This document shows, piece after piece, positions 34,486 through 53,331 of a stretch of 57,402 nt of DNA. The first letter of the stretch is position 1. The number at the start of each line of letters is the position of its first letter. The notes below the pieces were generated by a model. It ran no database searches and was not told the DNA's origin. It saw nothing but the letters and a program-made list of their open reading frames with translations. The translations under genes and the position numbers were made by a program. The stretch comes from Kiritimatiellia bacterium (lineage in GTDB: Bacteria; Verrucomicrobiota; Kiritimatiellia; RFP12; UBA1067): assembly GCA_045535455.1 (NCBI GenBank), contig JAZSLQ010000114.1:1-57402 (forward strand), in the 5' to 3' direction.

Positions 34486-34498
34486 TTGTCGAACCCCA

Positions 34499-34527: not shown

Positions 34528-34533
34528 ACTCCT

Positions 34534-34603: not shown

Positions 34604-34621
34604 ATTTGCGATGAAACAGTC

Positions 34622-34661
34622 GGGGACAGCCCCCCCCCTTGAATGGTCGGGGACAGACCCC
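34622..34661 (+). repeat. Two REP-like GGGGACAG(C/A)CCCC units
   Basis: Copies at 34622 and 34649; same family at 36422, 47395, 47417, 47996 and 48206. Confidence 0.8.
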
Positions 34662-34668
34662 CGCGGCA

Positions 34669-34693
34669 CCGTTGTAAAAGGCCTATTTGCGCG
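34669..34693 (+). other. Recurrent site A (CCGTTGTAAA-N7-TTTGCGCG)
   Basis: Repeated at 36441 and 52755, degenerate at 53301. Confidence 0.7.
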
Positions 34694-34757
34694 TTGGTGT
34701 CATCGCGGCGGATTTGCCGCGCTCTGCCGTCAGGGGATTTGTGGTATAATGTAGTGC

Positions 34758-36449
34758 ATGATGAAACTGCGCGAGAGATTGTTGAAGAGTGCGATCTGTC
34801 TTGTTGCCGCTGTGGTGGCGATGCCGACTATGGCTGATGACACCGCGTTTGCGTTGGATCAGGAGCGCCTTTCATTAAATCTGGTGCTTCCTGACGCGGC
34901 GGGAGCGTTTCCAACCAATGCAAACCCATATTGGGAGAAAGTCTCGCGCGCCGAGTTTACGAATGTTCTGGAGCGCATCTCAAAAATGACGCGGCTCAAG
35001 GATCTCTCGCTCGGGGTTCATGCAGAAAGCAAAGTCCCGCTCGATTTGGCCTTCCTTTCGTCTCAGACAAACATGACGGAACTCCGTCTCGGCGGCAATT
35101 TGCATATTGGCTCTTTCCGCAAGATTGCGCACCTGCCGCTGGAGCGGTTGGATGGCTGCTACTACTCTGATTCGAGCGTCTCGCTCACCGACGAGGACAG
35201 TCTCGGCTTGCTGAAATCGCTAAAATTCTTAAGGACGTGGAAAGACTTTCGGGCAATAGAAAAACTTCCGTCCGGTCTTGTTTCGCTCGATATGTCGCAT
35301 TCCCCAGAAGGTGGTTACTGTGGATGTTTTACGAATCTCGTCAATCTTGAAGAACTGGAGATGGACACCATATTTCGAAAGGATCAATACATCGACGAAG
35401 ATGACATTCGTGCCATGAAGAAGCTGAAGCGCCTTGTCCTTAACGGCGGGTACGAATTGGGTGATCTTGGCGCGCTCCGCGAGTGCAAGTCGCTCGAGAA
35501 CCTTGAAATTGCCTTTTGCGAGTCTCGTCCGCTTGACCTGTCTGTTCTCAATGGACTTCCGCTCAAGGAGCTGAAGCTCAATTCGTGCCTTGTGCATGAG
35601 GTAAAGGGGCTTGAGAAGTGCCCGTTGAAGAAGATAAGCATCGACTTTTGTCCGATTGCGTCGTTTGACGACTTCGGCGTTTTCCCGGATGCCCGCATTG
35701 TCGAGCTTCGCCGCACGGGCATAAGGTCTGCGGATCGCAATGCCGTGCTTAGGCATTTCCCGAGCATTTGGTCGTTGCTCTATGGAGATTTAATTGAGGG
35801 CTTTTGCGATGGAGACAGGTGCAATGAAGTTGTCTGCTTTGGTCCGACAGACATCGTCTTTGCTGCAGGTGGCGACAAGTCGAAGGGGTTGTCCTTCATG
35901 GGGTTTGACATGGATAGTTCGATTGTCTATGACGACGAAGTGTTTTCGATCAGCGAAGTCATCGGCATGTCGAATTGCGTATCGGACAAAAGATATGAAA
36001 GCGTCATTGGACTTGGGCGGCCGTTCCATGGATTTACGACCGTCAAGCTCGTTGGCCGTGAGGTTGAGATTGTCGGTGACGAGGCGTACGACGGGCAGGT
36101 TGACAGTCTGGAGTTCGAACAGGAGGACGAGGGGGCTGTGTTTGACTTTTCGTCAGAGAAGAAATGGGCGATGGAGCTTGCGGCTGAAATGGAAAGAGTC
36201 TATGGAGCAACATTCTGCTGGTATGACAATGATGAGCCCGCGACGTTTCTGGTTGTGAAGGGAAAATCTGACGCGTTCGATTTCGTTATTTCGAGTTGCG
36301 CGGGGAGTTCTGAAACGCATTGCGGCACCGGTGACGAGGTAAGTATAACGCGGCGAGAGTACAGAAATCGCCAGTTTTATGTGTCGCGGCGCGGTTCTGC
36401 GGAAAGTGCGCCGGAACAGCCGGGGACAGCCCCCACGGAACCGTTGTAA
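34758..36449 (+). CDS. Secreted leucine-rich-repeat protein
   Basis: Signal peptide; repeated LxxLxL units (LKSLKFL, LVNLEELEM, LKRLVL, LPLKELKL); TGGTATAAT 7 nt upstream. Confidence 0.8.
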   Translation: MMKLRERLLKSAICLVAAVVAMPTMADDTAFALDQERLSLNLVLPDAAGAFPTNANPYWEKVSRAEFTNVLERISKMTRLKDLSLGVHAESKVPLDLAFLSSQTNMTELRLGGNLHIGSFRKIAHLPLERLDGCYYSDSSVSLTDEDSLGLLKSLKFLRTWKDFRAIEKLPSGLVSLDMSHSPEGGYCGCFTNLVNLEELEMDTIFRKDQYIDEDDIRAMKKLKRLVLNGGYELGDLGALRECKSLENLEIAFCESRPLDLSVLNGLPLKELKLNSCLVHEVKGLEKCPLKKISIDFCPIASFDDFGVFPDARIVELRRTGIRSADRNAVLRHFPSIWSLLYGDLIEGFCDGDRCNEVVCFGPTDIVFAAGGDKSKGLSFMGFDMDSSIVYDDEVFSISEVIGMSNCVSDKRYESVIGLGRPFHGFTTVKLVGREVEIVGDEAYDGQVDSLEFEQEDEGAVFDFSSEKKWAMELAAEMERVYGATFCWYDNDEPATFLVVKGKSDAFDFVISSCAGSSETHCGTGDEVSITRREYRNRQFYVSRRGSAESAPEQPGTAPTEPL

Positions 36450-36465
36450 ATGCCATGTTTGCGCG
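36441..36465 (+). other. Recurrent site B, containing the LRR gene stop codon
   Basis: CCGTTGTAAA-TGCCATG-TTTGCGCG, preceded by a GGGGACAGCCCCC unit. Confidence 0.7.
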
Positions 36466-36511
36466 GTGCCGACGGCTTGCGCATTGGATTTATGATTTCG
36501 TATTTTCCCCA

Positions 36512-36540
36512 TTGACATATTACGCAGCGCGTAATATACT
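36512..36540 (+). promoter_or_regulatory. higBA promoter with palindromic operator
   Basis: TTGACA-N17-TATACT; perfect inverted repeat ATATTACGC-AGC-GCGTAATAT (36517-36537) across the spacer. Confidence 0.85.
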
Positions 36541-36546
36541 ATACGC

Positions 36547-36825
36547 ATGATTTCATCGTTCAAGTGCAAGGACACGCAGGAGCTATACGGGACTGGCGAC
36601 AACCGACGGTTTGCTCCCATCGCCAGAGTTGCATTGCGTAAGCTTGACATGCTTGCTGCAGCAACGATGGTTGATACGCTTCGTGTTCCTCCTGGGAATC
36701 GCCTGGAGCAGCTGCGTGGTAATAGAAAAGGGCAGTGGAGCATTCGTGTCAACGATCAATGGCGCATTTGCTTCCGCTGGATCGGAACGAACGCCTGCGA
36801 TGTCGAAATCGTGGACTATCATTGA
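36547..36825 (+). CDS. higB: HigB toxin (RelE/plasmid-killer family)
   Basis: MISSFK, LRVPPGNRLEQL.G.RKGQWSIRVNDQWRICFRW, EIVDYH. Confidence 0.93.
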   Translation: MISSFKCKDTQELYGTGDNRRFAPIARVALRKLDMLAAATMVDTLRVPPGNRLEQLRGNRKGQWSIRVNDQWRICFRWIGTNACDVEIVDYH

Positions 36826-36835
36826 GGAGAAAGTT

Positions 36836-37150
36836 ATGCGCACAAAAAATCTGATTCACCCAGGCGAGATACTTCAAGAGGAGTTTCTTGTGCCGCTGGG
36901 CATTAGCCAGACGCGTCTAGCGCTGGATTTGCATGTGCCGGCACCTCGCATCAACGCGATTGTGCGCGGCAAGCGGGCGATAACCGCCGACACCGCGCTT
37001 CGCCTCGGCCAGTATTTCAAGATGGAGCCGCAGTTCTGGCTCAATCTTCAGGCCAATTACGACCTCGGGGTTGCTTCCGGCGGTGTGTGGTCGAGAATCA
37101 AGAAGCTAATTCCCGAGTTCATGCCGGAAAACGCCGCCGCCGTTCTATAG
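36836..37150 (+). CDS. higA: HigA antitoxin (HTH)
   Basis: IHPGEILQEEFL, ITADTALRL, FWLNLQ..YDL; GAGGAG SD. Confidence 0.93.
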   Translation: MRTKNLIHPGEILQEEFLVPLGISQTRLALDLHVPAPRINAIVRGKRAITADTALRLGQYFKMEPQFWLNLQANYDLGVASGGVWSRIKKLIPEFMPENAAAVL

Positions 37151-37301
37151 GAATGAGGTAACTATGCGACGAAGAAAAACGCTGGAAGGCAAGCACACGC
37201 GCACAAAGCCACTAACTTCAACCAAAGAATCATCTGCCTGCACTTGGCGACACAGTCAAAACACAACACAGGCCACGGCGTTTTTTGGTAAAATATGACA
37301 C

Positions 37302-38990
37302 ATGAGCGAGAACTCTCTTGCAAACATGATATTGAAGTCCGCCGGAATCTACTCCGACGAACAACTTCAGCGCATTGCCGAAAGCCGCGCGGCGAACCCC
37401 GGAATGGGGCTCGCGGAGGCCGCCGTCAAGTTCGGCGGGGCGAAGGAAATCGAGTTCCTTTCGGCGGTCGGGAAGTCGCTCGGCCTTGAGACGGTCGACC
37501 TCGAACACCAGCAGCCGAACCCAGACGCGCTCACGAAACTCCCCGCGTCGGCAGTCTACCAGTACAACGTCCTCCCGTTCAAGACCGACGGCACTTCGCT
37601 TACAATCGTCACCTCCGACCCGTTTGACACCGCCGCGGCGGATGGCCTCCGGCTTGTCGCGGGCTGCCCGATAAAGACCTCGCTCGCCCCGAAGGAAGAA
37701 GTCGAGAAGGCCGTAAAGAAATACTACGGCGTCGGCGCGGACGCGATCGAGAAGATGATCGAGGACGGCCGCTATTCCGTCGACGAAGACATCGGCGCAA
37801 TGACGAAGATCGACGTCAACGAGATGGGCGAAGAGGCGTCGATCGTCAAGTTCGTAAACCAGATCATCGCTGAAGCCGACCGCCAGGGCGCGACCGATAT
37901 CCACATCGAGCCGCAGGAGACGGAACTCCGAATCCGCTACCGCATCGACGGCATGCTACACAAGGTCGACGTTCCGCCGCAGCTGAACCGCCTCAAGAGC
38001 GCAATCATCTCTCGTATCAAGGTCATGGCGAACCTCGATATCGCCGAGAAGCGCCTCCCGATGGACGGCCGCATCGGCATCCGCATCGCTGGCCAGGACA
38101 TCGACATCCGCGTCTCGACCATGCCTGCCGCGTATGGCGAGTCGATCTCCCTCCGACTTCTCGCGAAGAGCGGCAACTTCGTAAAGATGGACGACCTCGG
38201 CTTCAACGAGCGCGACTACGCGGTCGTCAACAAGATCATCCACCGCCCGAACGGCATCTTCCTCGTGACGGGGCCCACTGGCTCCGGCAAGTCGACGTCG
38301 CTCTACTCGTTCCTTTCCGAAGTCAACAAGATCGACGTCCGCATCATGACGGCCGAGGACCCGATAGAATACCACATGGCCGGCATCAACCAGGTGCAGA
38401 TGCAGTCTGAGATCGGCATGACGTTCGCGAGGGCGCTCCGCGCGTTTCTGCGTCAGGACCCCGACATCATCATGGTCGGCGAAATCCGCGACCGCGAGAC
38501 GGCCGAGATCGCGATCAACGCGTCGCTCACGGGCCACATGGTGTTTTCGACGCTGCACACCAACGACGCGGCAGGCGCGTTTCCGCGTCTTATCGACATG
38601 GGCGTTGAGCCGTTCCTCATCGCCTCCGCCGTCGCGGGCGTGATGGGTCAGCGCCTCTGCCGCCGCCTCTGCCCGCAGTGCAAGAAGGAAGTCCCGCTCG
38701 ACATGAAGTACTACTCGCTCGACACGCCCCCCGAGAGGAATACGGTGTTCGAGCCCGCCGGTTGCGATGTCTGCACGAGGACCGGCTACAAGGGGCGCCG
38801 CGCTCTCTTCGAGGTGCTGGAAGTCGACGAGGACATCGAGGGCGCGATCGTCCGCCGCGAGAACGCGACTCAGATTCGCAACATCTCTCTCTCGAAGGGC
38901 ATGAAGACTCTGCGCGAGGACGGCTGGGCGAAGGTGTTTGCGGGCGTCACGAGCGTCAAGGAAATCTTGCGCGTCACGGAAGATCAGTGA
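37302..38990 (+). CDS. GspE/PilB family secretion or pilus assembly ATPase
   Basis: ATDIHIEP, GPTGSGKS, EDPIEY, LRQDPD, GHMVFSTLH, CxxC pairs. Confidence 0.92.
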   Translation: MSENSLANMILKSAGIYSDEQLQRIAESRAANPGMGLAEAAVKFGGAKEIEFLSAVGKSLGLETVDLEHQQPNPDALTKLPASAVYQYNVLPFKTDGTSLTIVTSDPFDTAAADGLRLVAGCPIKTSLAPKEEVEKAVKKYYGVGADAIEKMIEDGRYSVDEDIGAMTKIDVNEMGEEASIVKFVNQIIAEADRQGATDIHIEPQETELRIRYRIDGMLHKVDVPPQLNRLKSAIISRIKVMANLDIAEKRLPMDGRIGIRIAGQDIDIRVSTMPAAYGESISLRLLAKSGNFVKMDDLGFNERDYAVVNKIIHRPNGIFLVTGPTGSGKSTSLYSFLSEVNKIDVRIMTAEDPIEYHMAGINQVQMQSEIGMTFARALRAFLRQDPDIIMVGEIRDRETAEIAINASLTGHMVFSTLHTNDAAGAFPRLIDMGVEPFLIASAVAGVMGQRLCRRLCPQCKKEVPLDMKYYSLDTPPERNTVFEPAGCDVCTRTGYKGRRALFEVLEVDEDIEGAIVRRENATQIRNISLSKGMKTLREDGWAKVFAGVTSVKEILRVTEDQ

Positions 38991-40408
38991 TGCCCGGTCT
39001 TTCAGGCGAGCTACGTCAGAAGCTTACGCAGAGCCAGACCCTTGCTCCGCAGATGCGGCAGGGGCTTGAGCTCCTTGCGATGAGTCTTCCCGAGCTCCGC
39101 CAGCGGCTTTACGAGGAGATGAGCCGCAATCCGTGCATTGAGGACATAGAGGCGACTCTCGAGAGTACGACAGTCTCCGAGAAGGTGCGCGAGATGGAGC
39201 GCGACGAGAGCGCCGACGATTCTGATTCCCAGGGCGAGGATTACGAGCCCGAGTTTGGCGCCGCCGCGGCGATTACGCGGGACGAGGAGGCGGACGAGAG
39301 GCGCCAGCGCTTTTTCGACAGGCAGACGAAGGAGGAGACGCTTGAAGAGCATCTTCTCGCCCAGCTCAAGATGTCGGACATCGACGAGAAGGATCTGCCG
39401 CTCGCGGAGATGCTGATAGGCGAGCTGAATGCCGACGGGCGTTTCATAGGTTCGATTCCCGACATCGTGATGGTTTCTGGCGAAAGCGAGGAGAAGATAG
39501 TCGCCGTCCTCAAGGAGGTAATGCAGCTTGACCCTCCTGGATGTGGCGCGAGGACGCCTCAGGAATGCCTCTTGGCGCAGATAGACAAGCTTGACGGCTC
39601 GCCGTATCAGGAAGAAGTGCGCGCGCTCATCGAGCGCCACTTCGAGGACATGGCGGAAGGGCGCATCGCTGCCATCGAGCACGACCTCGGCATTTCGCAC
39701 GAGCGCTACGCCGACATACTGAGGGAACTTCGTACGCTCGAGCCGCGCCCAGGACGCGCGTATGACCTCGCGGGGAAGTCGATAAGCTACGTCCATCCCG
39801 AGGTGCATGTCGTCAAGACCGACGAGGGTTGGGAGGCGAGGGTGGACGACAGGAGTCTTCCCGAGGTGCATATCTCGCCGAAGTACCTGAAGATGCTTGC
39901 CGACCCGAATGTCGACAAGGAGACGAAGAGCTACATTCGCCAGCGCATAGCGGCGGCAAACTCCCTCGCCGAGGCGGTGGAACGCCGCCAGCAGACTATC
40001 ACCGACATCGCGCAGGCAATCTTCGACGCCCAGCCCGGCTTCTTCGAAAAGGGGCTCAAGGGCCTGCGGCCGATGACGATGCAGGAGATCGCGGAAAAGA
40101 CTGGCGTTCACCACGCGACGGTGTCGCGCACCGTCCGCGACAAATACGCCTCGACGCCGAAGGGGACTGTCGAACTCAGGAAGTTCTTCACTTCTGGAAT
40201 CACGACCGATTCAGGCGAGCAGGTCACGAAAGACGCGCTTCGCGAACGGCTTGCCGCCATCATAGAGGGCGAAGACAAGGCGCATCCACTGTCGGACGAC
40301 CGGCTTTCTGAAATGCTCAAGAAAGAAGGGTTCCCGGTCGCTCGCAGGACGGTAGCGAAGTACAGAGGTCTTTTGGGCATACCGGGAATGTCGGAGCGCC
40401 GTCGCTGA
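38990..40408 (+). CDS. rpoN: RNA polymerase sigma-54 factor
   Basis: Q-rich region I, LDPPGCGAR, HHATVSR helix-turn-helix, RpoN box ARRTVAKYR. Confidence 0.95.
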   Translation: MPGLSGELRQKLTQSQTLAPQMRQGLELLAMSLPELRQRLYEEMSRNPCIEDIEATLESTTVSEKVREMERDESADDSDSQGEDYEPEFGAAAAITRDEEADERRQRFFDRQTKEETLEEHLLAQLKMSDIDEKDLPLAEMLIGELNADGRFIGSIPDIVMVSGESEEKIVAVLKEVMQLDPPGCGARTPQECLLAQIDKLDGSPYQEEVRALIERHFEDMAEGRIAAIEHDLGISHERYADILRELRTLEPRPGRAYDLAGKSISYVHPEVHVVKTDEGWEARVDDRSLPEVHISPKYLKMLADPNVDKETKSYIRQRIAAANSLAEAVERRQQTITDIAQAIFDAQPGFFEKGLKGLRPMTMQEIAEKTGVHHATVSRTVRDKYASTPKGTVELRKFFTSGITTDSGEQVTKDALRERLAAIIEGEDKAHPLSDDRLSEMLKKEGFPVARRTVAKYRGLLGIPGMSERRR

Positions 40409-40476
40409 TTTACGCGTTAGAAACTGCACATAATGTGAAAAACGGCTCTGATAACCAACAACAGACGCCGTATTTT

Positions 40477-40485
40477 TGGTATAAT
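40477..40485 (+). promoter_or_regulatory. Extended -10 promoter of metY
   Basis: TGGTATAAT. Confidence 0.65.
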
Positions 40486-40520
40486 TTATACTCCTACTTC
40501 ACATCGAAAGGACATGACAA

Positions 40521-41798
40521 GTGAAGATTGACACACTATGCGTTCAGGGCGGCTGGTATCCCAAGTGCGGCGAGCCGCGCCAGGTTCCCGTGTATTCATC
40601 GACGACGTTTAAGTACGACACGACACAGCACATGGCCGACTTGTTCGACCTGAAGGCGTCAGGGTATTTCTACACCCGTCTCGCAAACCCTACTAACGAT
40701 GCGGTGGCGAAGAAGATCGCCGCGCTCGAGGGTGGCGTCGCGGCGATCCTCACGAGCTCCGGACAGGCGGCCTCTACGTTCGCGATCCTCAACCTCTGCA
40801 ATGCTGGCGACCATGTCGTTGCGTCCGCGCAGATTTACGGCGGCACGTTCAACCTCTTTGCCGTCTCGCTCAAGAAGCTTGGCATCGAGTTCACTTTCGT
40901 CGATCCCGACGCTACAGAGAAGGAGATTCAGAAGGCGTTTCGCCCGAACACGAAGTGCGTTTTCGGAGAGACGGTCGCGAACCCCTCTGGCTGCGTCCTC
41001 GACATTGCCAAGTTCGCGCGCATCGCGCACAAGAACGGCGTGCCGCTGATTGTTGACAACACGTTCCCGACCCCGATTCTCTGCCGTCCGTTCGAATTCG
41101 GCTGCGACATCGTGACGCATGCTACGACGAAATACATGGACGGCCACTCCTCGCAGGTCGGCGGCTGCATCGTGGACTCCGGTAATTTCGACTGGTCGAA
41201 GCACGCCGACAAGTTCCCCGGGCTTGTTGAGCCCGACGCCTCGTACCACGGTCTCAGCTACGTCAAGGCGTTCGGCAAGATGGCGTTCATCGTGAAGTGC
41301 ACCGCGCACCTGATGCGCGACTTCGGCTCGATTCCTTCGCCGTTCAACGCGTTCCTCCTGAACCTCGGCCTCGAGTCGCTGCACCTCAGGATACGCCGCC
41401 ACGCGGAATCGGCGCTCAAAATCGCCAAGTGGCTCAAGACGCAGAAGAAGGTCGCTTGGGTCAACTTCGCTGGGCTTCCCGGCTCGAAGTACAACAAGCT
41501 CGTCAAGAAGCAATTCAACGGCAACTCGCCGTGCGGCGTGATGACGTTCGGCATAAAGGGCGGCCGCAAGGCGTCCATCAAGTTCATGGACTCGCTGAAG
41601 CTCATCGGTATCGTGACGCACGTTGCAGACGCCTGGAGCTGTGTCCTGCACCCGGCTTCGCACACCCACCGCCAGCTGACGGATGCGCAACTCAAGGCGG
41701 CCGGCATCCCGCCGGACCTGATCCGCTTCTCCGTCGGCCTCGAGGATCCAGACGACCTCATAGCCGATTTGAAACAGGCGCTCGCTAAGGTAAAGTGA
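40521..41798 (+). CDS. metY: O-acetylhomoserine aminocarboxypropyltransferase
   Basis: YTRLANPT, SSGQAA, VDNTF, HATTKYMDGH (PLP lysine), HPASHTHRQL. Confidence 0.9.
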   Translation: MKIDTLCVQGGWYPKCGEPRQVPVYSSTTFKYDTTQHMADLFDLKASGYFYTRLANPTNDAVAKKIAALEGGVAAILTSSGQAASTFAILNLCNAGDHVVASAQIYGGTFNLFAVSLKKLGIEFTFVDPDATEKEIQKAFRPNTKCVFGETVANPSGCVLDIAKFARIAHKNGVPLIVDNTFPTPILCRPFEFGCDIVTHATTKYMDGHSSQVGGCIVDSGNFDWSKHADKFPGLVEPDASYHGLSYVKAFGKMAFIVKCTAHLMRDFGSIPSPFNAFLLNLGLESLHLRIRRHAESALKIAKWLKTQKKVAWVNFAGLPGSKYNKLVKKQFNGNSPCGVMTFGIKGGRKASIKFMDSLKLIGIVTHVADAWSCVLHPASHTHRQLTDAQLKAAGIPPDLIRFSVGLEDPDDLIADLKQALAKVK

Positions 41799-41817
41799 TT
41801 TTTGGAGGGCTCTGACA

Positions 41818-44800: not shown

Positions 44801-45021
44801 ACGAGGCCGAACAGTGCATCTCCAAGGCGTGCGATCTTTCAAAGTCCAAGTCCGGCAAGGAGGAGGACGTCCGCATGCTGATCGCCCTCGCGAGAGTGCA
44901 GATTGCGAAGGGAGATCGCCAGCGCGCCAACATGACGATTCGCAAGGTCAAAGGGCGTGTGAAGGAACTTTCAGAGTTCGAGCGCGGCGAGTTCGAGGAG
45001 CTCAGCAAGAGTGTTCGCTGA
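41818..45021 (+). CDS. Polytopic membrane protein (DUF2723/GT-C-like) with C-terminal TPR array
   Basis: About 11 TM segments in the first 390 aa; TPR-like helices in the C-terminal half. Confidence 0.6.
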   Translation: MKQFKDVGKRGGEWLVAGVLAAAAALLYFCTMASCAYPGEGAHLMTLWKGLDSAAVNVHPLMAVFARLLGCSNILGPLCGIVSVVALYHLTSFFIRERIGGELLSQYADSMGRLAGIVAAVVFMATPAVQQSFTHLSSFSFDAAWALVTATLLIPYARAGNKTGWMFPILIGIFAGLGFADSPLFGLLAPLYFGGVWAVSGKRGGKPYGAAFAFLLIAIVTLFVYAPNASGNFTEHMRAHWNETKMWLSADGWFLVGAFAVVPFVVALFSSFGAYNRESGFSQWIYHVAMSFVTILAVATPLSPSSLMRPYGLLPVVPCALAAFTAAYLVAYWWLLAVAKVRKNESIDTAPVALKGRTLALAVLPVLSLVMVITILLNLFSFDSSRGDFADRTAEKLIADLGDRTWFITDGLLDDHLRLAAAKTGKELNLVCLQRDLDMRYLGELAKLVEEKGIGGEKNRGLSISLSLGVLAFVQDWFAADPDIAKRAAIFGAPDLWYAAGMKAVPEFLFFGADPTRKPDWSVWDEFDKILAPPKDVKEWGSYRLWKENDPIELARLRLRRHIGLVANDRGVWLQDVGDDDGAFNMYELVLNSIDRDNVCALFNEFEMARAGHPKAARRKNDIEKAFKAIVDDRERRYVLWKLANVYGYIRNPEIFVRLGFAWAKSGRPGEALNQIRRAIDFVPTERRSSLLNMMAALYASDSDVKKSRATYEEVLSRDAENHDALVGLMRLELLEGNSARAIEYLERATKAAKDDPRVAIEVAMLHLIKNELSEAKTMLTRSTDLDPTNLQAWSLLAAVSFQQFDVSKDPAERAALLKNVENVILPEMEKNAKDANDYNIQSTRAFLLLRQGDEKRKAARDMFAAAIKTRPDVQATQDIVLGLDISLNDTADAEYHAREVLRRNRKAPLANYVMGSLALQKGKYEEAEMFLRRACETTRPVVLAQNDLAEVLRRTKRLEEAERYARLAVRTSPDLYVAWETLGSILLDANGDLNEAEQCISKACDLSKSKSGKEEDVRMLIALARVQIAKGDRQRANMTIRKVKGRVKELSEFERGEFEELSKSVR

Positions 45022-46147: not shown

Positions 46148-47076
46148 CGCAGCGAATCAATGCCTGGCTTCGTGCCTTGAGAGTGAACCAGTGGACGAAG
46201 AACGGAATCGTCTTCCTCGCGTGGTTTTTTGCCGTCGCGGACCCTTCGCAGGCGGCGATGGCACGTGGCATACGGCCTTTCATTCTTGTCGCGGCGATGG
46301 CTGTTGCATTCTGCTTCATCTCAAGCGCGTTCTATCTTCTCAATGACGTAGCAGACTTCGAGGCCGACCGTCTCCATCCGATAAAGCGGCTGCGTCCCGT
46401 CGCGGCTGGGCTTGTGTCGCGCATCGACGCGGTCAGGGTTGCGCTTTCGCTTTTTGCCATTGCGCTGATGTTCCCGTGCTATCTCGTCTTCCGTCATCCC
46501 GACCGCACATGGGGCTTTGCGGTAATTCTCATCTACTCCGTGATGCAGTGCGCGTACTCTGGGTTTCTTAAACGCATTCCCTACATCGACGTCGTGGTTA
46601 TCGCGGCGGGCTTTGTCCTTCGCGCGATTGCTGGCGCTGCGGCGATGAACGTGCGAATCTCGCCGTGGCTCCTTGCATGCGCGTTCGCGCTTTCGCTCTT
46701 TATCGCGCTTGCCAAGCGCCGCCACGAAATGTCAGTGGCCATCGAGTCTCGCGCGGCGCTCTCTGGCTACCATCCCATCGTGCTCGACGTCCTGATGTTT
46801 ATGTCGGCTCTCGCGACGTTCATTGTCTACACGTGGTACACGCTTTCCCCCGATACGGTTGCACGCTTTGGAACGCGCTATCTCGTCGTCACCACCGTCT
46901 TTGTCGCACTCGGGCTTGCGCGCTATATTCGGCTCGTCTACTCAAAGGCCGATGTCGGACGTCCTGAGAAGATTCTCCTTTCCGACTGGCCGATGTGGAT
47001 TATACTTGCGCTCTACGGCGTTTCTGCCGTTCTTGCGGTTCTCCTTCGCTACGTCGTAACCGCTTCTGGTGTCTGA
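46144..47076 (+). CDS. UbiA-family prenyltransferase (polyprenyl-phosphate phosphoribosyltransferase-like)
   Basis: LR..QWTKN, YLLND..D.EADRLHP.KR.RP.A.G, GFVLRAIAG, KRRHE. Confidence 0.85.
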   Translation: MTQRINAWLRALRVNQWTKNGIVFLAWFFAVADPSQAAMARGIRPFILVAAMAVAFCFISSAFYLLNDVADFEADRLHPIKRLRPVAAGLVSRIDAVRVALSLFAIALMFPCYLVFRHPDRTWGFAVILIYSVMQCAYSGFLKRIPYIDVVVIAAGFVLRAIAGAAAMNVRISPWLLACAFALSLFIALAKRRHEMSVAIESRAALSGYHPIVLDVLMFMSALATFIVYTWYTLSPDTVARFGTRYLVVTTVFVALGLARYIRLVYSKADVGRPEKILLSDWPMWIILALYGVSAVLAVLLRYVVTASGV

Positions 47077-48344
47077 TGAGTGAATTTCTCGACAGTCTCG
47101 CGGCACGGAGGCGGTTTGGCATGCGGCCGTCTCTCGATGCGATTGGCGGCGTATGTGCCGCGCTCGGCGATCCTCAGAAGAATCTACGCGCAATTCATGT
47201 CGCTGGCACGAACGGGAAGGGCGCAGTTTGCGCGATGATCGACGCGTGCCTTCGTGCGGATGGTCTCAGAATAGGTCGCTACACCTCGCCCCATCTCGTC
47301 CGCATCAACGAACGCTTCGTGCTTGACGGCAATCCTGTCTCCGACGATAAGTTGGAAAAATGTTCAAAAATTGTTGAGGAGGCAATCTCTCGCTGGGGAC
47401 AGACCCTGGGAAAAAAGGGGCTGTCCCCAATAGAAGTCACTTTTTTCGAGGCGTTGACGGCTGTCGCTTTCGTCTTGTATGCAGATGAGGCGTTAGACTA
47501 TGCCGTTCTCGAGACGGGGCTTGGCGGTCGGCTTGACGCGACGAACATCTGTGTGCCGGAGATTTGCATCATAACGAAGATCGGGCTCGATCACTGCGAC
47601 TGGCTTGGCGACACCGTTGAGAAGATTGCCGCGGAAAAGGCGGGGATAATAAAGAAGGGCGTGCCTATAGTCCTTGGGAAGAACGACCCTGAGGTCATTG
47701 CGGTCGTGAAGGCTCGCGCAAGCGAGGTCGGTGCGCCGTTCTTCTATGCACCTGACATGGCGGACGAGTCGGAAATACCAGACGGTTTCTCCCTTGAGGG
47801 TGCGTTCAACCGCGAGAACGCCATCACCGCTCTCGCCGCGCTGAAAGTTCTCAAGAAGGGCTCGCGTGACGGGCTCTCGAATGTCGTCTGGCCGGGGCGG
47901 TTTCAGAGGGTCGGGCGTTTCATCATTGACGGGGCCCATAACCCCCCGGCAGCTCGTGCCCTTGCCGCCGCACTCAGTAAATACGCGCCTTTCGCGGGGT
48001 CTGTCCCCACGCTCATCGCCGGCTTTTGTGGCGACAAAGATGTCGACGAGACATTGCGGATTCTTGCCCCCCTTGTTGGGAAAGGAATCGCTGTCCGCAC
48101 GAACAATCCACGCTCGCTCGCCCCGGAGGAACTTGCGCGAAAGATGGAAGCCGCTGGGATTTCGGCGATTTCATGCGATTCTATTCATTTAGCGTTAGAA
48201 AAAATGGGGTCTGTCCCCAGCGGTTCTGGGGCTGATACGCTGATTTGTGGTTCGCTGTTCCTCGCAGGCGAGGCGCTTGCCGAGCTCGGTGCCTTTCCGT
48301 GGTTGGCAGACCGTTTCGATGCGGCAGAAATCCTGAAGGTTTGA
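47076..48344 (+). CDS. folC: Folylpolyglutamate/dihydrofolate synthase
   Basis: HVAGTNGKG, YTSPHL, ETGLGGRLDATN, EKAGIIK, WPGRF, DGAHNP, GSLFL. Confidence 0.93.
   Translation: MSEFLDSLAARRRFGMRPSLDAIGGVCAALGDPQKNLRAIHVAGTNGKGAVCAMIDACLRADGLRIGRYTSPHLVRINERFVLDGNPVSDDKLEKCSKIVEEAISRWGQTLGKKGLSPIEVTFFEALTAVAFVLYADEALDYAVLETGLGGRLDATNICVPEICIITKIGLDHCDWLGDTVEKIAAEKAGIIKKGVPIVLGKNDPEVIAVVKARASEVGAPFFYAPDMADESEIPDGFSLEGAFNRENAITALAALKVLKKGSRDGLSNVVWPGRFQRVGRFIIDGAHNPPAARALAAALSKYAPFAGSVPTLIAGFCGDKDVDETLRILAPLVGKGIAVRTNNPRSLAPEELARKMEAAGISAISCDSIHLALEKMGSVPSGSGADTLICGSLFLAGEALAELGAFPWLADRFDAAEILKV
47394..47429. repeat. In-frame inverted REP-like pair inside folC
   Basis: TGGGGACAGACCCT-N8-AGGGGCTGTCCCCA; further single units at 47996-48008 and 48206-48218. 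Confidence 0.85.
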
Positions 48345-48358
48345 TATAATCTACTGCG

Positions 48359-49588
48359 ATGAAGAAGAAGAGAGGAACGCTTGCACTTGTATCGCTCGGC
48401 TGCGCTAAGAACGCAGTCGATCTGCAGGTCATGACTGGCAATCTTTTGAAGGAGGGCTGGGCTCTCTCTCCCGATCCCGACTGCGCAGATGTCGTAATCG
48501 TCAATACTTGCTCTTTTATCGCCTCAGCGCGCGAGGAGGCGGAGGCCGAGATACTTCGCGCGATTGAGCTCAAGAAGATCGGCCGCTACGGAAAGGTCGT
48601 CGTCGCGGGGTGCTATCCGCAGCGCTACCCCGAGCTCAAGGGCGCGTTTCCCGGCGTGGACGAATGGGGCGGTGTTCCGAAGGACTGGATTGAGCCGAAG
48701 ATGCCGGCGCTTCGCCTCACCGGAAAGGCGTTCGCATACCTCAAGATCGCCGAAGGGTGCGCACATCGCTGCGCCTACTGCGCGATTCCTCTAATTCGCG
48801 GCAAGTACCGCTCACGCCCGCTCAGGTCGATACTTAAGGAGGCGCGTTCGCTCGTGGCGACGGGGTGCCGCGAAATCAACGTCATCGCGCAAGATCCGAT
48901 GCTTTGGCGCGAGGGAAAGAAGTCGCTTCCCGATCTCCTTTGGGCGCTCGACAAGATTCCTGGCGACTTCTGGGTGCGCGTCCTCTACAGTTATCCGAGC
49001 GAGATATCAGAGGATTTTCTCGTCTGGATGCTCACGTCGAAACACGCCGTCCGCTACATCGACGTGCCGCTCCAGCACACTGTTCCTGAAGTCCTCGAGA
49101 AGATGAACCGCAAGGCCGCGATAGCCGATTCGCTCGCGGCGGCCGAGTTCCTGCGCGATGTCGTCCCCGGAATTACGCTGAGGACGACGATAATGACTGG
49201 CTTCCCCGGCGAGACCGAGGCGCGTTTCAGGAAGCTCATGGCCGACTTGCGGCGCATGCAGTTCGACCACCTCGGCTGCTTCGCGTATTCGCCGGAGAAG
49301 GGCACGAAGGGCGCGCTTCTTGGCGGGCGTCCTTCGCGAGCGGTTGCGCTCGCACGAGAGAAGGCGGTGATGGGGCTTGCGAAGGAGATATGGAAGGCGC
49401 GGTCGAAGCGGCTTGTCGGCGAGACGTTCCGCGCGCTCGTCGTTGCGCCTGGCGTGGCGCGGCTTGAGTCTCAGGCGCCCGATGTCGACGGAGTGACTTA
49501 TATTGAGGGCAACGCCAATGTCGGTGAATTCGTCAGTGTTCGCATAGAGAAGGTCGAGGGCTTCGACTTCAGGGGAAAGGTCGTTTGA
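48359..49588 (+). CDS. rimO: Ribosomal protein S12 methylthiotransferase RimO
   Basis: SLGCAKNAVD, NTCSFI, YLKIAEGC...C.YC.IP, QAPDVDG; TGATATAAT 8 nt upstream. Confidence 0.9.
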   Translation: MKKKRGTLALVSLGCAKNAVDLQVMTGNLLKEGWALSPDPDCADVVIVNTCSFIASAREEAEAEILRAIELKKIGRYGKVVVAGCYPQRYPELKGAFPGVDEWGGVPKDWIEPKMPALRLTGKAFAYLKIAEGCAHRCAYCAIPLIRGKYRSRPLRSILKEARSLVATGCREINVIAQDPMLWREGKKSLPDLLWALDKIPGDFWVRVLYSYPSEISEDFLVWMLTSKHAVRYIDVPLQHTVPEVLEKMNRKAAIADSLAAAEFLRDVVPGITLRTTIMTGFPGETEARFRKLMADLRRMQFDHLGCFAYSPEKGTKGALLGGRPSRAVALAREKAVMGLAKEIWKARSKRLVGETFRALVVAPGVARLESQAPDVDGVTYIEGNANVGEFVSVRIEKVEGFDFRGKVV

Positions 49589-50526
49589 AGATGCGTCGCC
49601 CGATTCCATACATCAACGAGGAAGTCTCGAACAGAGATCTAAAGTACTACATCTTCGATTGGGACGACAATATTCTCCACATGCCGACGCGCATCAAGAT
49701 GGAGCATCGCGATACAGTCGACAGTCCGTGGAAGCCGGTGGAAGTTTCGACTGCCACCTTTGCGCTCGTCCGCGCCGACGAGGATCACTATCGCGCTCCT
49801 GGCGGGGTGTGGGCTGACGCGTTCAGGAACTTCGAGGACGCGCCTGGACGCGACAATTTCATCGAGGACACGATTGCCGCGCTTGAGAAGATCGAGCACG
49901 GCGAAAAGCCGTCGCCGAGCTTCTACACTTTCAAGAAGACTTTGATCGAGGGTCGCATTTTCGCCATCGTGACGGCTCGCGGACATGCTCCCGAGACGAT
50001 AGAGAGGGCGGTCAGGGTGTTCATCAAGTACGTCCTGACCGAAGAGGAGCGCGAGACGATGATGTCGAACCTTCGCGGCTACCGTCAGTGGATCGATGGC
50101 GTTGGCAACGGCGAGTTCGGCACGGACGCGGAGGAGCTCGACTACTACCTTGGCATGTGCCGCTACTCGGCAGTGACTTTTCAGGGCTTCAAGGAGCGCA
50201 TGGAGCGCGATCCGATATATCAGGAGAAGCTTGCCGTAGCGCCGACTGCGGCGAAGCCGGAGCTTGCGAAGGAGTTTGCGATACGCGATTTCGTGGAACA
50301 TATCTTCCACATGCTGCGTCGCAACGGCACTTCGGATCGCGCCGTTTCCATTGGCTTTTCTGACGACGACAAGGGCAACGTGAAGTGTGTTTCTGACTAC
50401 ATCCGCTCGGAGCTTTCGAAGCGCTTCGAGGGGATAAAGTTCGTAGTCTACGACACTTCCGACAGCACGCTCAGCAAAGGCCGCAAAGTATGTGTCTCCG
50501 GCCAGCTCAACCTCCCCGGATTTTAA
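49585..50526 (+). CDS. HAD-like hypothetical protein
   Basis: FDWDDN (motif I-like), IVTARGH, GFSDDD motifs. Confidence 0.6.
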   Translation: MKMRRPIPYINEEVSNRDLKYYIFDWDDNILHMPTRIKMEHRDTVDSPWKPVEVSTATFALVRADEDHYRAPGGVWADAFRNFEDAPGRDNFIEDTIAALEKIEHGEKPSPSFYTFKKTLIEGRIFAIVTARGHAPETIERAVRVFIKYVLTEEERETMMSNLRGYRQWIDGVGNGEFGTDAEELDYYLGMCRYSAVTFQGFKERMERDPIYQEKLAVAPTAAKPELAKEFAIRDFVEHIFHMLRRNGTSDRAVSIGFSDDDKGNVKCVSDYIRSELSKRFEGIKFVVYDTSDSTLSKGRKVCVSGQLNLPGF

Positions 50527-50538
50527 GTTAGGCGCCTC

Positions 50539-50619
50539 GGCGGCGGCCGAAGGCTCCTCCTCGCGGAACCTCGGCGAATACGCCGTATCCGCTCGCTCGG
50601 ACCTTCGCTCCGCTGCCTC
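50539..50619 (+). repeat. 81-bp structured repeat, copy 1
   Basis: 75/81 identical to the reverse complement of 54010-54090. Confidence 0.9.
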
Positions 50620-50684
50620 ACGCTTCGCGACGATTTCGCAAGGTTGGCGACAATGATGGGTGATTTTTGATACAATACCTGACA

Positions 50685-51830
50685 ATGAAAATCCTAATCG
50701 CGGTTTTGGATTGGATAAGGTGGATTGCCGGTATTTTGCTGGCAATGGCGATTCCGTTTGCCTGGATTTGCAGAGACGGATTGGGCCCGGATATGTACGA
50801 GTCGACTGGTTTTGAAGCAATCGTAAAGACGTTTTCCTCGCCCGAAATCTGGGGTTTGGCATTTGCGTTCATTGTTCTTTCCGCGGCAGTTCGCTTCTTG
50901 TCAACGCGTGGCGCAGGCGAGAAGAAGGTCGCGAAATGGTCTTGGCGCGAGTCCGCGTCTGTGTTTTCTGTTGCCTTTCTGCTGTGCTTGCTGGGCGTGG
51001 TCGCTTTCAGGGATTGGACGGACAGGGAAAGACTGCGCAAGGCGGAAGAGTGTTTGGCTTCGCATGCGGCGAAGTGGAATCGAACTGTCAATTTGCCGGT
51101 TGCTCCACATGGAGAGGCGCTGACGGCCGCCTCGCTGCCGGCTAAGAGTCTGTTCGCGGAAATCTTAATTAGAGACGAGAAAGGCGCGCTGCTGCCAGTT
51201 CCAAGGGCGACGATGGAAGGAGAAAGCCTCTCCGTGGAAAATGACGAGATTCGGGATGAAGCTGTTGCAGATGTCTTTAAACGTCAGACAGGGAAGGAGA
51301 GATTCGGGAGAGATGGGTTCTTTGCCTTTATAGGTGCAGACAAGGAGTGCAGTCATCGTTGTGTGGCAAGCCTCATCAATGGTCTTAACAGTTACGGGAT
51401 ATGGGATATCTTGATCGTGGCTCGTGAGAGTGGTGAGGCTGACGATGTACGGTTGGTGTCGTTCAAGATTTTGCGCCCTTATCCAGGTGTTTACCCAGAA
51501 GAAGATTTACATTTAGTTACAGAAGAGCCGTTCGATGAAGAGGACTTGTCAATTCATTATACTAAACCATTCTCGCTTGGGCAGCGGTTGACTTTCTTGG
51601 TTGGGAGGTCTGTCGACGGTTCTCTTGACGGTGCGCTGGTCTATTGCGACAAGCGGGTCTCTCTCGCCGAGCTTGACGATATCTTGGCGAATTTGGCTGG
51701 AAACCCCGAGACCAAGGGAAAGACCGTTGCCATAAAATGTACGGAGGGTTCGCCACATAAGGCGCTTGTGAATGTCCTCGACATCCTTTACAAGCACAAT
51801 TTCAAACGCGTGTATCTCTTGACGCTATGA
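50685..51830 (+). CDS. Membrane protein with two ExbD-like periplasmic domains
   Basis: Three N-terminal TMs; IGADKECSHRCVASLINGL and VAIKCTEGSPHKALVNVLDIL segments; TGATACAAT 8 nt before ATG 50685. Confidence 0.55.
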   Translation: MKILIAVLDWIRWIAGILLAMAIPFAWICRDGLGPDMYESTGFEAIVKTFSSPEIWGLAFAFIVLSAAVRFLSTRGAGEKKVAKWSWRESASVFSVAFLLCLLGVVAFRDWTDRERLRKAEECLASHAAKWNRTVNLPVAPHGEALTAASLPAKSLFAEILIRDEKGALLPVPRATMEGESLSVENDEIRDEAVADVFKRQTGKERFGRDGFFAFIGADKECSHRCVASLINGLNSYGIWDILIVARESGEADDVRLVSFKILRPYPGVYPEEDLHLVTEEPFDEEDLSIHYTKPFSLGQRLTFLVGRSVDGSLDGALVYCDKRVSLAELDDILANLAGNPETKGKTVAIKCTEGSPHKALVNVLDILYKHNFKRVYLLTL

Positions 51831-52735
51831 AGAAAGTTTTCAACATTCTGTGGCGGGTGGTGGCGAGCGTGTGGATGCCGCCGGTGGCGCTGGTTGGCAT
51901 TGTGCTGGCCATATTTGTTGAAGATGTGTTGTGGTCTAAGTATCCTGCACTGCTGGTGCGGTGTATGCTTGCCTGCGAGTGGATTGTGTCGAAGCACCTT
52001 GGGTTCATTTTAATTCTTGTTTCGGCAATTTCCGCTGTTCTCTTTTTCTGTGATCTTGCGCGGAAGAAATGGCGGCGCGCTCTGGCGCGGGTCGGACTGT
52101 TTGCAGTTGGATTTGCAACGATGTGGTGGATTGGAGACTGTTACATTCACAATTTTCGCGGCCATCAGGTCTCGGCAATTGAGATTTGCGTCGCGGGAAA
52201 AGATACTGCAAAGATTGGGGAAAAGTCCTTCTCGCCCGACGAGCTTTTCAAGATTCTTCGCTTGGTTCATCTGAAAACTCGTGCTGACAGCGTCGCCTTT
52301 GTCATTGGTGAGGATATCGGCTTTCAGGATTTCTGGAGCTGTTTCCTCAATCGGTGCAGCGTGGTCGGTATATGGCATTTGGCGTTCAGAACGGCTGATG
52401 GGGAGTGGCCGTTTCTTTATACGGACGGAATTCATGTAGATTACATGTGTGATCCAAAAATTGCCGCTGTTCGGATAGGGGAAGGGGGCGTTCTTTCGTT
52501 TGAAGACGATTTTCATTTGGATGTTGTGGAAGAAGAAGAGAACAGTGTTGCCAATCAAGGTGGGTTTAACCTTTTCAATGACAGTGAGTCCGCCGTCTTC
52601 GGTGATGGTGTATCGGCACGGTATGTCGCTGCGGCTGTTGTGGTCAATTCGAATTGCAGAATATCGCTCGTCGCTGCCTGTGTCAAACGCTTGAACGAAG
52701 CAGGGTTTCATTATGTGTTTGTGTTATATACATGA
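51827..52735 (+). CDS. Membrane protein with ExbD-like segments
   Basis: Three TMs followed by degenerate ExbD-like beta-alpha-beta segments; ATGA overlap. Confidence 0.5.
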   Translation: MKKVFNILWRVVASVWMPPVALVGIVLAIFVEDVLWSKYPALLVRCMLACEWIVSKHLGFILILVSAISAVLFFCDLARKKWRRALARVGLFAVGFATMWWIGDCYIHNFRGHQVSAIEICVAGKDTAKIGEKSFSPDELFKILRLVHLKTRADSVAFVIGEDIGFQDFWSCFLNRCSVVGIWHLAFRTADGEWPFLYTDGIHVDYMCDPKIAAVRIGEGGVLSFEDDFHLDVVEEEENSVANQGGFNLFNDSESAVFGDGVSARYVAAAVVVNSNCRISLVAACVKRLNEAGFHYVFVLYT

Positions 52736-52754
52736 GCGGCAGTAGGCGGCAGAG

Positions 52755-52779
52755 CCGTTGTAAAAGGGCTGTTTGTGCG
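52755..52779 (+). other. Recurrent site C
   Basis: CCGTTGTAAA-AGGGCTG-TTTGTGCG. Confidence 0.7.
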
Positions 52780-52851
52780 TTGCAGCGGCCCTTGCGGGGC
52801 TACACGGCCAAAGTGAATTTATGATATAATATCGGCATCAAAAGAAACAAC

Positions 52852-53271
52852 ATGAGCCGGCTTTCGTTTAAGTCTTTTTGTATAGAGTACTATGCGCGAC
52901 ATATCGGTTCTACGGGAGCCGATGTTTACAAGATGTTTTTGGATAGTGGTCTCCTTAAGACTCTTGATGATGATTATGAGGATCTCCACGGGCTTGGATG
53001 GGAAGCTCTGATGCCGATGTTCGATAAATATCTTGGGAGGTCTGGAATATCTGCGCTGATGGATGAAGACCATACGCTGATCCGGGCGACGCTGGTTCCT
53101 GCGATAGTCGACTACCTTGCGACGCATTACAATGTTTCAGAAGACAGTGCGATGGAAATGTTCTATCGCTCGAAGACTGCTCAGGCTTTTGCGGATGACG
53201 ATCTTGGGCTTTATGGTCAAAGCGCACTGAATATTGCCAGCAACGTGATACAAGAGCGCGAAGCTGTCTGA
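52852..53271 (+). CDS. DUF3791-family protein (putative antitoxin-like, two-domain)
   Basis: FCIEYYA...VY..F...G.......YEDLHG motif plus FYRSKT....D...LY.QS second half; own TGATATAAT promoter. Confidence 0.65.
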   Translation: MSRLSFKSFCIEYYARHIGSTGADVYKMFLDSGLLKTLDDDYEDLHGLGWEALMPMFDKYLGRSGISALMDEDHTLIRATLVPAIVDYLATHYNVSEDSAMEMFYRSKTAQAFADDDLGLYGQSALNIASNVIQEREAV

Positions 53272-53331
53272 ATGGCCTGGGAATGGCCATAGGACAGCTT
53301 CATTGTAAAAGGCCATGTTTGATAGTACAAT

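Follow-up and report, generated by a model that had tools for sequence, protein, structure and literature searches.

We asked why one short sequence recurs at the boundaries of accessory genes in a 57,402-nt contig of a Kiritimatiellia bacterium (JAZSLQ010000114.1, assembly GCA_045535455.1), a stretch that we refer to in its entirety as the window. On the plus strand of the window, CCGTTGTAAA-N7-TTTGYGCG occurs in three exact, co-oriented copies (sites A, B and C; Table 1), followed by a degenerate one (site D). A preliminary description, made from the letters of the window, took these copies for the recombination sites of an integron- or pdif-like cassette system. We consider it reasonably likely that the site is instead the central module of a mosaic dispersed repeat, akin to repetitive extragenic palindromes (REPs) and bacterial interspersed mosaic elements (BIMEs), which is found in one uncultured clade of ruminant-gut Kiritimatiellia and delimits re-partnered accessory units, for whose rearrangement it serves as a substrate.

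The copies themselves largely stood as first described. When up to three mismatches were allowed, the motif matched four times against 0.06 expected, and 0 of 100 shuffled sequences reached four; the match beyond the three exact ones, at position 10618, carries three mismatches and no other feature of the family. Site D, reported at 53301, is present with GAATGG..GGACAG-type remnants upstream; its core is 8 nt, and it was missed by the profile described below. A weak inverted copy at 37200-37224 did not survive: its right arm is perfect, its left arm is mismatched at 5 of 10 positions, and neither the motif scan nor the profile found it. Sites A and B both carry an upstream GGGGACAG(A/C)CCCC hairpin, and the leucine-rich repeat (LRR) open reading frame (ORF) at 34758-36449 does take its stop from site B. 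Element B supplies the last 11 codons of this ORF together with its TAA; the orthologue in a related genome (G074), where the element is absent, ends on a TAG 11 codons earlier. The earlier gene calls hold as well, namely Cas1/Cas9, LRR, HigB with an HTH_3 antitoxin, type II secretion system (T2SS) ATPase, sigma-54, the ExbD-like pair and DUF3791.

Comparison with related genomes (G074, G008 and others) mapped eight synteny breakpoints in the window. Four of them (52754/52755, 36413/36414, 52748 and 53327) lie at most 7 nt from a copy, and a fifth (34710/34711) lies 17 nt after one. In G074, position 52754 is joined directly to 53951, without the 1.2 kb that here hold site C, the DUF3791 gene, site D and the 206-aa gene (52755-53950), so that the extra DNA in the window starts exactly at CCGTTGTAAA of site C. 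The 206-aa gene is kept in G008, where 52749-53326 (C, DUF3791 and D) is replaced and homology resumes at 53327. G074 also joins 36413 to 37240 through a 27-nt filler and lacks site B and higBA (36414-37239) at this locus; its higBA unit lies on another contig, in a co-oriented array, and the flanks in the window are 91-96% identical to G074. Homology to LRR loci begins at 34711 in G074 (17 nt after site A), at 34734 in G013 and at 34754 in G012. The accessory stretches have a GC content of 0.50-0.52 against 0.58-0.62 nearby, and DNA-level comparison with 60 other genomes of the genus recovered the LRR, higBA, DUF3791 and 206-aa genes in 1-5 of them, against 60/60 for the T2SS ATPase gene and about 58/60 for the glutamate dehydrogenase gene (gdh). 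The observation that the sites sit at junctions of accessory units was thus upheld, in that the units differ between relatives and breakpoints fall at or near sites A, B, C and D. Part of 34300-37500 is found in 20 sequencing runs; in four ruminant-gut runs among them, the Logan contigs, a few hundred bases long, fork at 37170 and at the edges of the element, as would be consistent with many contexts in nature. Separately, in one low-depth Logan contig (X3, depth 3.4) position 34722 is followed, after 26 other letters, by 36507.

The motif proved to be the middle of a mosaic repeat of about 60-110 nt, in which a GGGGACAGNCCCC hairpin is followed by RCGRAA and CCGTTGTAAA-N7-TTTGCGCG, often with a portable promoter. 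A full copy reads, 5' to 3', as an optional stop codon, ACAGTT, the hairpin, RCGRAA, the left arm, the 7-nt spacer, the right arm and a TTGTTGNCGGCTTGCG-type tail; a shared promoter module at the 3' side is found in a minority of copies. The scan of the genome and its relatives that the preliminary description had called for was made with the motif and, in the present genome, also with an nhmmer profile built from 15 copies (threshold E<1e-3). In the present genome (G000, a 3.43-Mb draft) the strict motif occurs 6 times and the profile has 22 members, which form two subfamilies (..GCGGAACCGTTGTAAAAGGCCTGTTTGCGCG.. and ..ACGAAACCGTTGTAAAACGGCCGTTTGAGCGTTAAG..). DNA fetched from relatives, together with G000, yielded 115 copies in 10 genomes of related species, of which 52 fit the strict motif. 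The core, described as variable, does differ among the sites in the window; with the spacer AGGCCTG in 42/115 copies, it is nevertheless not freely variable. Within 40 nt upstream of the motif a full hairpin is present in 75 of the 115 copies, a loop-deleted one in 20 and none in the remaining 20, site C among them.

This repeat has a narrow distribution. A first draw of relatives gave the motif in 4/25 genus genomes against 0/16 from other genera of the order, and at least nine copies were found in only 9 of 117 genus genomes (G000, G003, G074, G079, G086, G097, G109, G112 and G115), where a reversed-pattern control reached at most 3. Relatives named in public records are metagenome-assembled genomes (MAGs) of uncultured ruminant-gut Kiritimatiellia. 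A scan of the whole window against Rfam returned no family at gathering score. In IMG/VR the exact motif has two matches, one a chance match without hairpin and the other on a contig filed as viral (L108). This contig carries, at 8277-9982, a full element copy and chromosomal segments in common with G000, including the region upstream of the T2SS ATPase gene (window 37241-37483, 94% identity), and is probably a chromosomal fragment or a prophage edge; the two matches therefore give no sign of a phage vehicle. A link of the motif to the CRISPR array in the window was also considered and rejected, since the array repeat (28476-29567) has just GTTGT in common with it.

At nine loci in six genomes the repeat forms arrays, each with 3-7 copies in the same orientation at intervals of 0.4-3 kb; the intervening genes are co-oriented as well. 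The cargo comprises HigBA, DUF4160, DUF7724, AAA_14/DUF4143 ATPases, LRR proteins, a serpin, a RhuM-like protein, a PolyVal-type kinase, a trio of a helix-turn-helix (HTH) and ExbD-like proteins, and many ORFs without a Pfam family. Related genomes hold the same units in different orders: writing E for the element, G086 has E, 206-aa gene, E, HTH-ExbD pair, E, and the window has ExbD pair, E, DUF3791, E, 206-aa gene. When 260-nt flanks were clustered for the 107 copies with both flanks, 12/20 upstream flank families and 14/19 downstream flank families had at least two different partners. Units and element modules are re-partnered between species, and shuffling of cassettes is supported by these comparisons.

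We then placed the exchanges within the element by comparing pairs of copies, which are non-independent events and in which the invariant left arm gives no resolution. In 19 pairs with only the upstream flank in common, the mismatch rate per hairpin column is 0-0.26 (0.37 in loop column 55), the baseline being about 0.3-0.6, and the spacer is at baseline; in 47 pairs with only the downstream flank in common, the hairpin is at baseline, and spacer, arm and tail fall below it. The hairpin side tends to stay with the upstream gene, and the spacer, right arm and tail with the downstream gene, which places the exchanges inside the element. Pairwise ancestry boundaries fall into three zones at or inside the element, at -28..-21 (5' of the hairpin), -11..0 (from hairpin to left arm, the commonest) and +21..+34 (after the right arm). 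On these data, crossover at one point within the 7-nt spacer, where the preliminary description had expected the breakpoints, is excluded. One module, CAG..AGCCATG..CTCGTGGAT, occurs with two different upstream and two different downstream flanks.

The same data bear on the integron- or pdif-like system first proposed, in which the arms and the 7-nt spacer would be the core site of a tyrosine recombinase encoded elsewhere that moves circular cassettes. We now regard such a system as quite unlikely. The element shares with integron arrays and clusters of attC sites lacking integron integrases (CALINs) the co-oriented short units, the cargo of small, often toxin-antitoxin or unknown genes, the repeat placed right behind the upstream stop codon and the reordering of units between relatives. 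An imperfect dyad, G(T/C)AAA-N7-TTT(G)C, and the position of the main ancestry switch in or beside invariant GGAACCGTTGTAAA also speak for the integron- or pdif-like reading, as do the tyrosine recombinases of the genome: XerD, an XerC-like protein and three integrases of 422-434 aa. XerD and XerC are near-universal, however, and no integron integrase was found in G000, which is 84.7% complete; the best TIGR02249 scores, 131.8 and 121.2 bits against a cut-off of 265, belong to Xer-like proteins. No recombinase gene was seen beside the nine annotated arrays. An attC site is an imperfect palindrome of 55-140 nt with paired R''/R' boxes and the crossover in R', whereas sites A, B and C, folded on both strands, were not more stable than shuffles (z -0.71 to +0.43). 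Xer/dif-type modules (pdif; integrative mobile elements exploiting Xer, IMEX) have two 11-nt dif-like arms around a 6-8-nt spacer and are bounded by oppositely oriented sites; here only about 5 nt of each arm are dyad-symmetric, and the copies of any one array all point the same way. The units are self-promoted, conserved sequence lies on both sides of the main exchange zone, and the right arm can be accounted for as a mirrored form of the hairpin-adjacent RCGRAA box. With no IntI found, no attC-type fold and three boundary zones outside the core instead of one, the integron reading is not supported. As a separate observation, an integrase gene on contig C197 lies 6 kb from a weak doublet copy of the element.

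The hairpin points to a different enzyme. GGGGACANNCCCC has 50 copies in G000 against 0 for its reversed control, usually in the context hairpin, (A/G)CG(A/G)AA and A/T-rich linker, often with an inverted second hairpin that completes a doublet. A complete doublet on C197 is homologous to the motif (profile E 1.3e-4), and the 'right arm' TTTGCGCG corresponds to the mirrored RCGRAA box. Hairpin plus RCGRAA was found in 36/117 genus genomes, ten of which have at least 10 copies (10-22), and the control gave 0 in all 117. G000 encodes four Y1_Tnp (HUH) proteins (Pfam 30.5-41 bits against a cut-off of 23), and their scores of 44-67 bits for NCBIfam REP_Tyr_transpos, under the cut-off of 80, make them distant members of that family. 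Their best solved relative is E. coli TnpAREP (4ER8, E 0.007), with the HUH and Y..NP motifs aligned (HFH, YVYLNP). Inverted hairpins flank one type of transposase gene, that of contigs C72 and C27, at 8/8 loci in six genomes, the plus hairpin upstream and the minus hairpin 40-60 nt past the stop. Matches to the transposase at 85-95% identity occur in 9/9 motif-rich genomes; several are fragments, two have an in-frame stop, and one fragment is also found in G122.

The available portions of two earlier descriptions give GGGGWSAS, or GGGG[AT][CG]A[CG], as the terminal inverted repeat (TIR) consensus of the TIR-associated tyrosine transposases (TIRYT), subclass 2.1 (Di Nocera et al., 2013, PMC3733652; Quentin et al., 2018, PMC6006769), and GGGGACAG fits it at 8/8 positions. 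According to the accessible text of the latter (PMC6006769), this subclass corresponds to Group 1 of the tyrosine transposases associated with REPs (RAYTs). A Y1 HUH gene, inverted flanking repeats, a dispersed repeat of which the motif is part, and GGGGWSAS were all found, which on sequence grounds would make the element a TIRtron-type family with a putative enzyme activity. The hairpin accordingly appears to be the terminal-inverted-repeat signature of the genome's RAYT/TIRYT-type Y1 HUH transposase genes, and the co-occurring RAYT that the preliminary description had suggested looking for is represented by these hairpin-flanked, RAYT/TIRYT-like genes. The GTAG tetranucleotide is not present 5' of the hairpin, where the bases are mostly CAGTT, CAGTC or CCGT, and a classical GTAG-REP (RAYT groups 2 and 3) was rejected on this ground. 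The C72/C27-type genes additionally carry a hairpin of their own (GGGGACAGACCCC GCGGAAGTGCCGTC, minus strand) within the open reading frame, some 200 nt short of the stop codon (C72:18509, C27:6101 and, at the corresponding position, six more loci, L082-L087). Two further Y1_Tnp proteins of 356 and 374 aa, with a C-terminal winged-helix domain (Fic-like_C), are encoded in G000 at C49:3665-4735 and C39:4540-5664; the flanks shown hold no GGGGACAG hairpin, and the C39 gene is bracketed by a small palindrome, AGAAGGGTCTGACCCTTCT.

If the repeat is a substrate of unit rearrangements, it could act in two ways: it could provide portable homology by which RecA-type exchange or gene conversion proceeds once DNA has been taken up, or it could be the place where the HUH transposase cleaves single-stranded DNA and transfers the strand. 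The boundary data are compatible both with HUH cleavage on either side of the hairpin and with homologous recombination or gene conversion. The E. coli enzyme cleaves single-stranded REP 5' or 3' of the hairpin, according to the available part of Corneloup et al., 2021 (PMC8266576); by analogy, cleavage of this type would match the two inner boundary zones here. A stronger version would be an integron-like system free of any integrase, in which single-stranded DNA is cut to either side of the GGGGACAGNCCCC hairpin, and joined again, by a HUH transposase of the TIRYT/RAYT type, which would move or swap promoter-bearing units, with the repeat as the 'attC' of Kiritimatiellia. We give little credence to this version, and enzyme and mechanism alike are inferred.

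Several points weigh against a repeat that drives the rearrangement of units. The spread over three zones is what general recombination, or gene conversion between repeats, would give as readily as a dedicated enzyme or more so, and common ancestry confounds the joint occurrence of transposase and repeat. Published work found no REP-like repeats adjoining subclass 2.1 genes, as far as the available portion of PMC6006769 extends. Three of the eight breakpoints in the window (53950/53951, 37170 and 37239/37240) have no element, and at the locus without the DUF3791 unit G008 has 59 nt of unrelated filler, not a single hybrid site. The flank-family test covered only element-containing junctions. 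A subfamily with core ACGGCCR occurs in stable contexts, one flank pair being identical in four genomes, which means that shuffling does not follow from the repeat alone. No direct observation of a rearrangement was made, the run data being short assembled contigs. All genomes are draft MAGs, so that some joins at repeats could be assembly errors. A contig end lies within 1.5 kb of 13/22 copies in G000 against 24% expected (P 4e-4); this result counts in favour of the junction role and fits strain heterogeneity or repeat-induced assembly breaks, and it also calls for caution on MAG joins.

Some of these points would also be explained if the repeat were a passive marker, that is, a selfish REP-like element accumulating in the dispensable intergenic DNA of newly acquired, fast-turnover regions whose units move by unrelated routes. 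The breakpoints without an element and the lack of a copy at the empty site of G008 agree with this, as does the behaviour of CAG..AGCCATG..CTCGTGGAT as an insertable module. Members of the generic hairpin family also lie between core genes: the statement that no copy occurs among core genes is true of the motif subfamily in the window and fails for the wider family, two minus-strand members of which (47996 and 48206) lie in a core-gene block. A marker of this kind is nonetheless improbable in our view. Five of the eight breakpoints are less than 20 nt from copies whose total length is well below 1% of the window, the element marks the start of the same units across genomes and contexts, and the division of hairpin and spacer variants between upstream and downstream gene places exchanges inside the element.

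We returned to the position of the repeat relative to genes and promoters, which is relevant to its role at the unit boundaries. A co-oriented ORF of at least 80 codons ends between -120 and +30 of the motif start in 93/103 copies with enough flank, against 59/103 for the opposite-strand control, by which ORF counts in this GC-rich DNA are noisy. The upstream ORF ends on the TAA of TTGTAAA in 32 of the 103 copies and at -30..-27, just before ACAGTTGGGG, in 14; the stop codons so supplied, and a -35 box at site D, are side effects of the repeat. TAYAAT follows within 140 nt in 43/114 copies against 3% of random (mostly coding) windows, with an extended -10 in 29 of the 43 and a distance of 50-79 nt from the motif start in 31 of them. 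About 13 copies have in common a promoter module, TTGATTTCAGCG..GCTATAAT, at variable offsets, which makes the repeat a mosaic of modules. The -10 boxes reported after each of the four co-oriented copies were recovered (A, TGGTATAAT; B, TATACT; C, TGATATAAT; D, TACAAT). The site B promoter, TTGACA-17-TATACT, has 11/12 consensus matches, and at site D, TTGTAA-17-TACAAT, the left arm of the element is the -35. The copies follow directly on the 3' end of a gene in the same orientation, or are fused to it, and precede a self-promoted unit; they thereby delimit small accessory units.

The promoters also prompted the one alternative offered in the preliminary description, the operator of a shared regulator, to which an UP element or an insulator that blocks read-through into the units can be added. 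The excess of TAYAAT, its concentration at 50-79 nt and the -35 at site D favour such a role, which we nevertheless judge very improbable: 71/114 copies have no such box within 140 nt, the distance from motif to -10 ranges over 25-94 nt among the four copies in the window, the nearest downstream ORF is on the minus strand for 7/22 copies in G000, no terminator-like T-run follows the hairpin, and the sequence is part of a transposase-linked repeat family. Sigma-54, extracytoplasmic function (ECF) and Bacteroidetes-type promoter readings of the motif were rejected, as none fitted the consensus spacings on comparison by eye.

As a mosaic REP/BIME-like repeat, the element resembles several known systems without coinciding with any. 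One is the class described as the TIRtrons of TIRYT genes (Di Nocera et al., 2013), as TnpA(Y1) subclass 2.1 (Quentin et al., 2018) and as Group 1 of the RAYTs (Bertels et al., 2017, PMC5581495). In common with TIRtrons, so far as the available portions of their descriptions go, there is a Y1 HUH transposase-like gene longer than classical RAYTs, flanked by inverted repeats that fit GGGGWSAS and are also dispersed as single, dimeric and clustered copies. Unlike in TIRtrons, the flanking unit here is a short self-complementary hairpin (GGGG-loop-CCCC), it is joined to a CCGTTGTAAA-N7-TTTGCGCG module and sometimes a promoter, and one subfamily lies in co-oriented arrays between accessory units. 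For most of subclass 2.1, the available portions of PMC3733652 and PMC6006769 mention hardly any dispersed repeats, or none, and draw no connection with the shuffling of genes. The REPs, BIMEs and REPINs (REP doublets forming hairpins) of Proteobacteria, with their RAYTs, are likewise described in the available text of Corneloup et al., 2021 (PMC8266576) as short extragenic palindromes mostly at gene 3' ends, which occur as singles, inverted doublets and module mosaics and whose cognate transposase gene is flanked by repeats. Here, in contrast, there is no GTAG or CGTC tag, the copy number is in the tens and not the hundreds, several near-identical transposase copies or fragments occur per genome, and the subfamily lies at accessory-unit junctions, often translated into the C-terminus of the upstream gene.

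The nearest idea in the literature is a proposal on the prochlorosin (procA) clusters of marine picocyanobacteria, in which a RAYT-family transposase, TnpAREP, would diversify co-oriented small units (Laurenceau et al., bioRxiv 10.1101/2020.03.09.984088). In the parts of that preprint available, transposase genes are interspersed with the cargo and no dispersed inverted repeat was found, whereas here the repeat, and not the transposase gene, is at the joints; causal support for the proposal was withdrawn in the authors' later note (same preprint record, as far as it is available). Our literature search found no description of the element or of REP-bounded cassette arrays, although supplementary TIR lists for the GGGGWSAS class may exist. 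What is new is thus a combination: a Group-1/TIRYT-type transposase with a clear dispersed hairpin repeat, a subfamily with a conserved 25-nt module and sometimes a promoter, and a systematic place at the joints of re-partnered units.

REP-type repeats and domesticated HUH transposases are widespread, and their function is still argued over. If the HUH enzyme drives the exchange, the largest and least understood RAYT group would gain a host-level function. If either repeat or enzyme does so, there would be a second, mechanistically different route to integron-like gene arrays, and a handle on how gut bacteria of the Planctomycetes-Verrucomicrobia-Chlamydiae (PVC) group trade toxin-antitoxin, surface and defence-type genes. 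Should the repeat be portable homology only, it would offer a clean natural example of REP-mediated modular evolution. In practice, MAG assemblies break at element sites.

Table 1. Element copies, accessory units and related features in the window.
Feature	Coordinates	Strand	Details
Solo hairpin unit	34622..34634	+	GGGGACAGCCCCC, then GAATGGTC; looks like the remnant of an earlier repeat unit
Site A	34649..34693	+	Hairpin 34649-34661, CGCGGCA, motif 34669-34693, core AGGCCTA; profile E 1.1e-15; flanked by the terminator of the candidate tracrRNA and the LRR gene unit
Downstream module of site A	34694..34757	+	GCGGCGGATTTGCCGCGC mini-hairpin and extended -10 TGGTATAAT (34742-34750) of the LRR gene
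LRR protein gene	34758..36449	+	563 aa; accessory unit
Site B	36414..36465	+	GAACAGCC, hairpin 36422-36434, ACGGAA, motif 36441-36465, core TGCCATG; profile E 8.6e-17
higBA unit	36422..37170	+	Element, promoter TTGACA-17-TATACT (36512-36540), higB (36547-36825), HTH_3 antitoxin ORF to 37150; 98% identity with G074:C121
Two generic hairpin-family members, core-gene block	47996..48218	-	GGGGACAGACCCC at 47996 and 48206; without the CCGTTGTAAA module
ExbD-like gene pair	50667..52735	+	387 and 302 aa; unit on the upstream side of site C; at DNA level, seldom found in the genus
Site C	52755..52779	+	Motif without hairpin, core AGGGCTG; extended -10 TGATATAAT at 52822-52830
DUF3791 gene	52852..53271	+	139 aa; accessory unit; absent at the locus in G008 and G074
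Site D, degenerate	53270..53331	+	GAATGG/GGAATGG/GGACAG remnants, CATTGTAAA-AGGCCATG-TTTG (53301-53321), TACAAT (53326-53331) 17 nt after TTGTAA
206-aa gene	53332..53952	+	No Pfam family; accessory unit; downstream of the ExbD-like pair here, upstream in G086

Other features of the window lie around these units. On the left, the CRISPR array at 28476-29567 holds 17 exact copies of a 36-nt repeat and adjoins cas1 (30011-30904) and cas9 (30901-34485, 1194 aa); GC is 0.46. Divergent from cas9 is a candidate trans-activating CRISPR RNA (tracrRNA) at 34534-34607 on the plus strand, with a promoter-like TTGACG-17-TATCAT (34499-34527) and an intrinsic terminator (34582-34597 plus a T-run); 13/15 bases of its 34534-34548 segment are complementary to the 5' end of the CRISPR repeat. 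On the right, the 206-aa gene converges on a bidirectional terminator (53961-53983) with a minus-strand glutamate dehydrogenase gene at 54101-55474 (ELFV_dehydrog, E 2e-85), and a long plus-strand ORF at 53969-55528 is spurious.

Two further palindromes accompany the element. A recurrent module, TTAAGCGAGCCGAC..GTCGGC(GA)GCG, follows many element copies and stands inverted before others (L016:5500-5560, L108:9260-9300 and several downstream flanks), and the intergenic DNA of the clade looks as if it had been put together from a set of ready-made modules. The other palindrome, a repeat of about 85-90 nt that is unrelated to the element and of the GAGGCGG..CCGCCTC type, lies in the window at 54004-54090 (plus strand) and 50539-50619 (minus strand) and elsewhere in G000 at C162:6837-6923, C73:1265-1347 and C163:3530-3625. 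It adjoins terminators, on C162 directly follows a copy of the second element subfamily, and is matched in many genus genomes at 84-97% identity.

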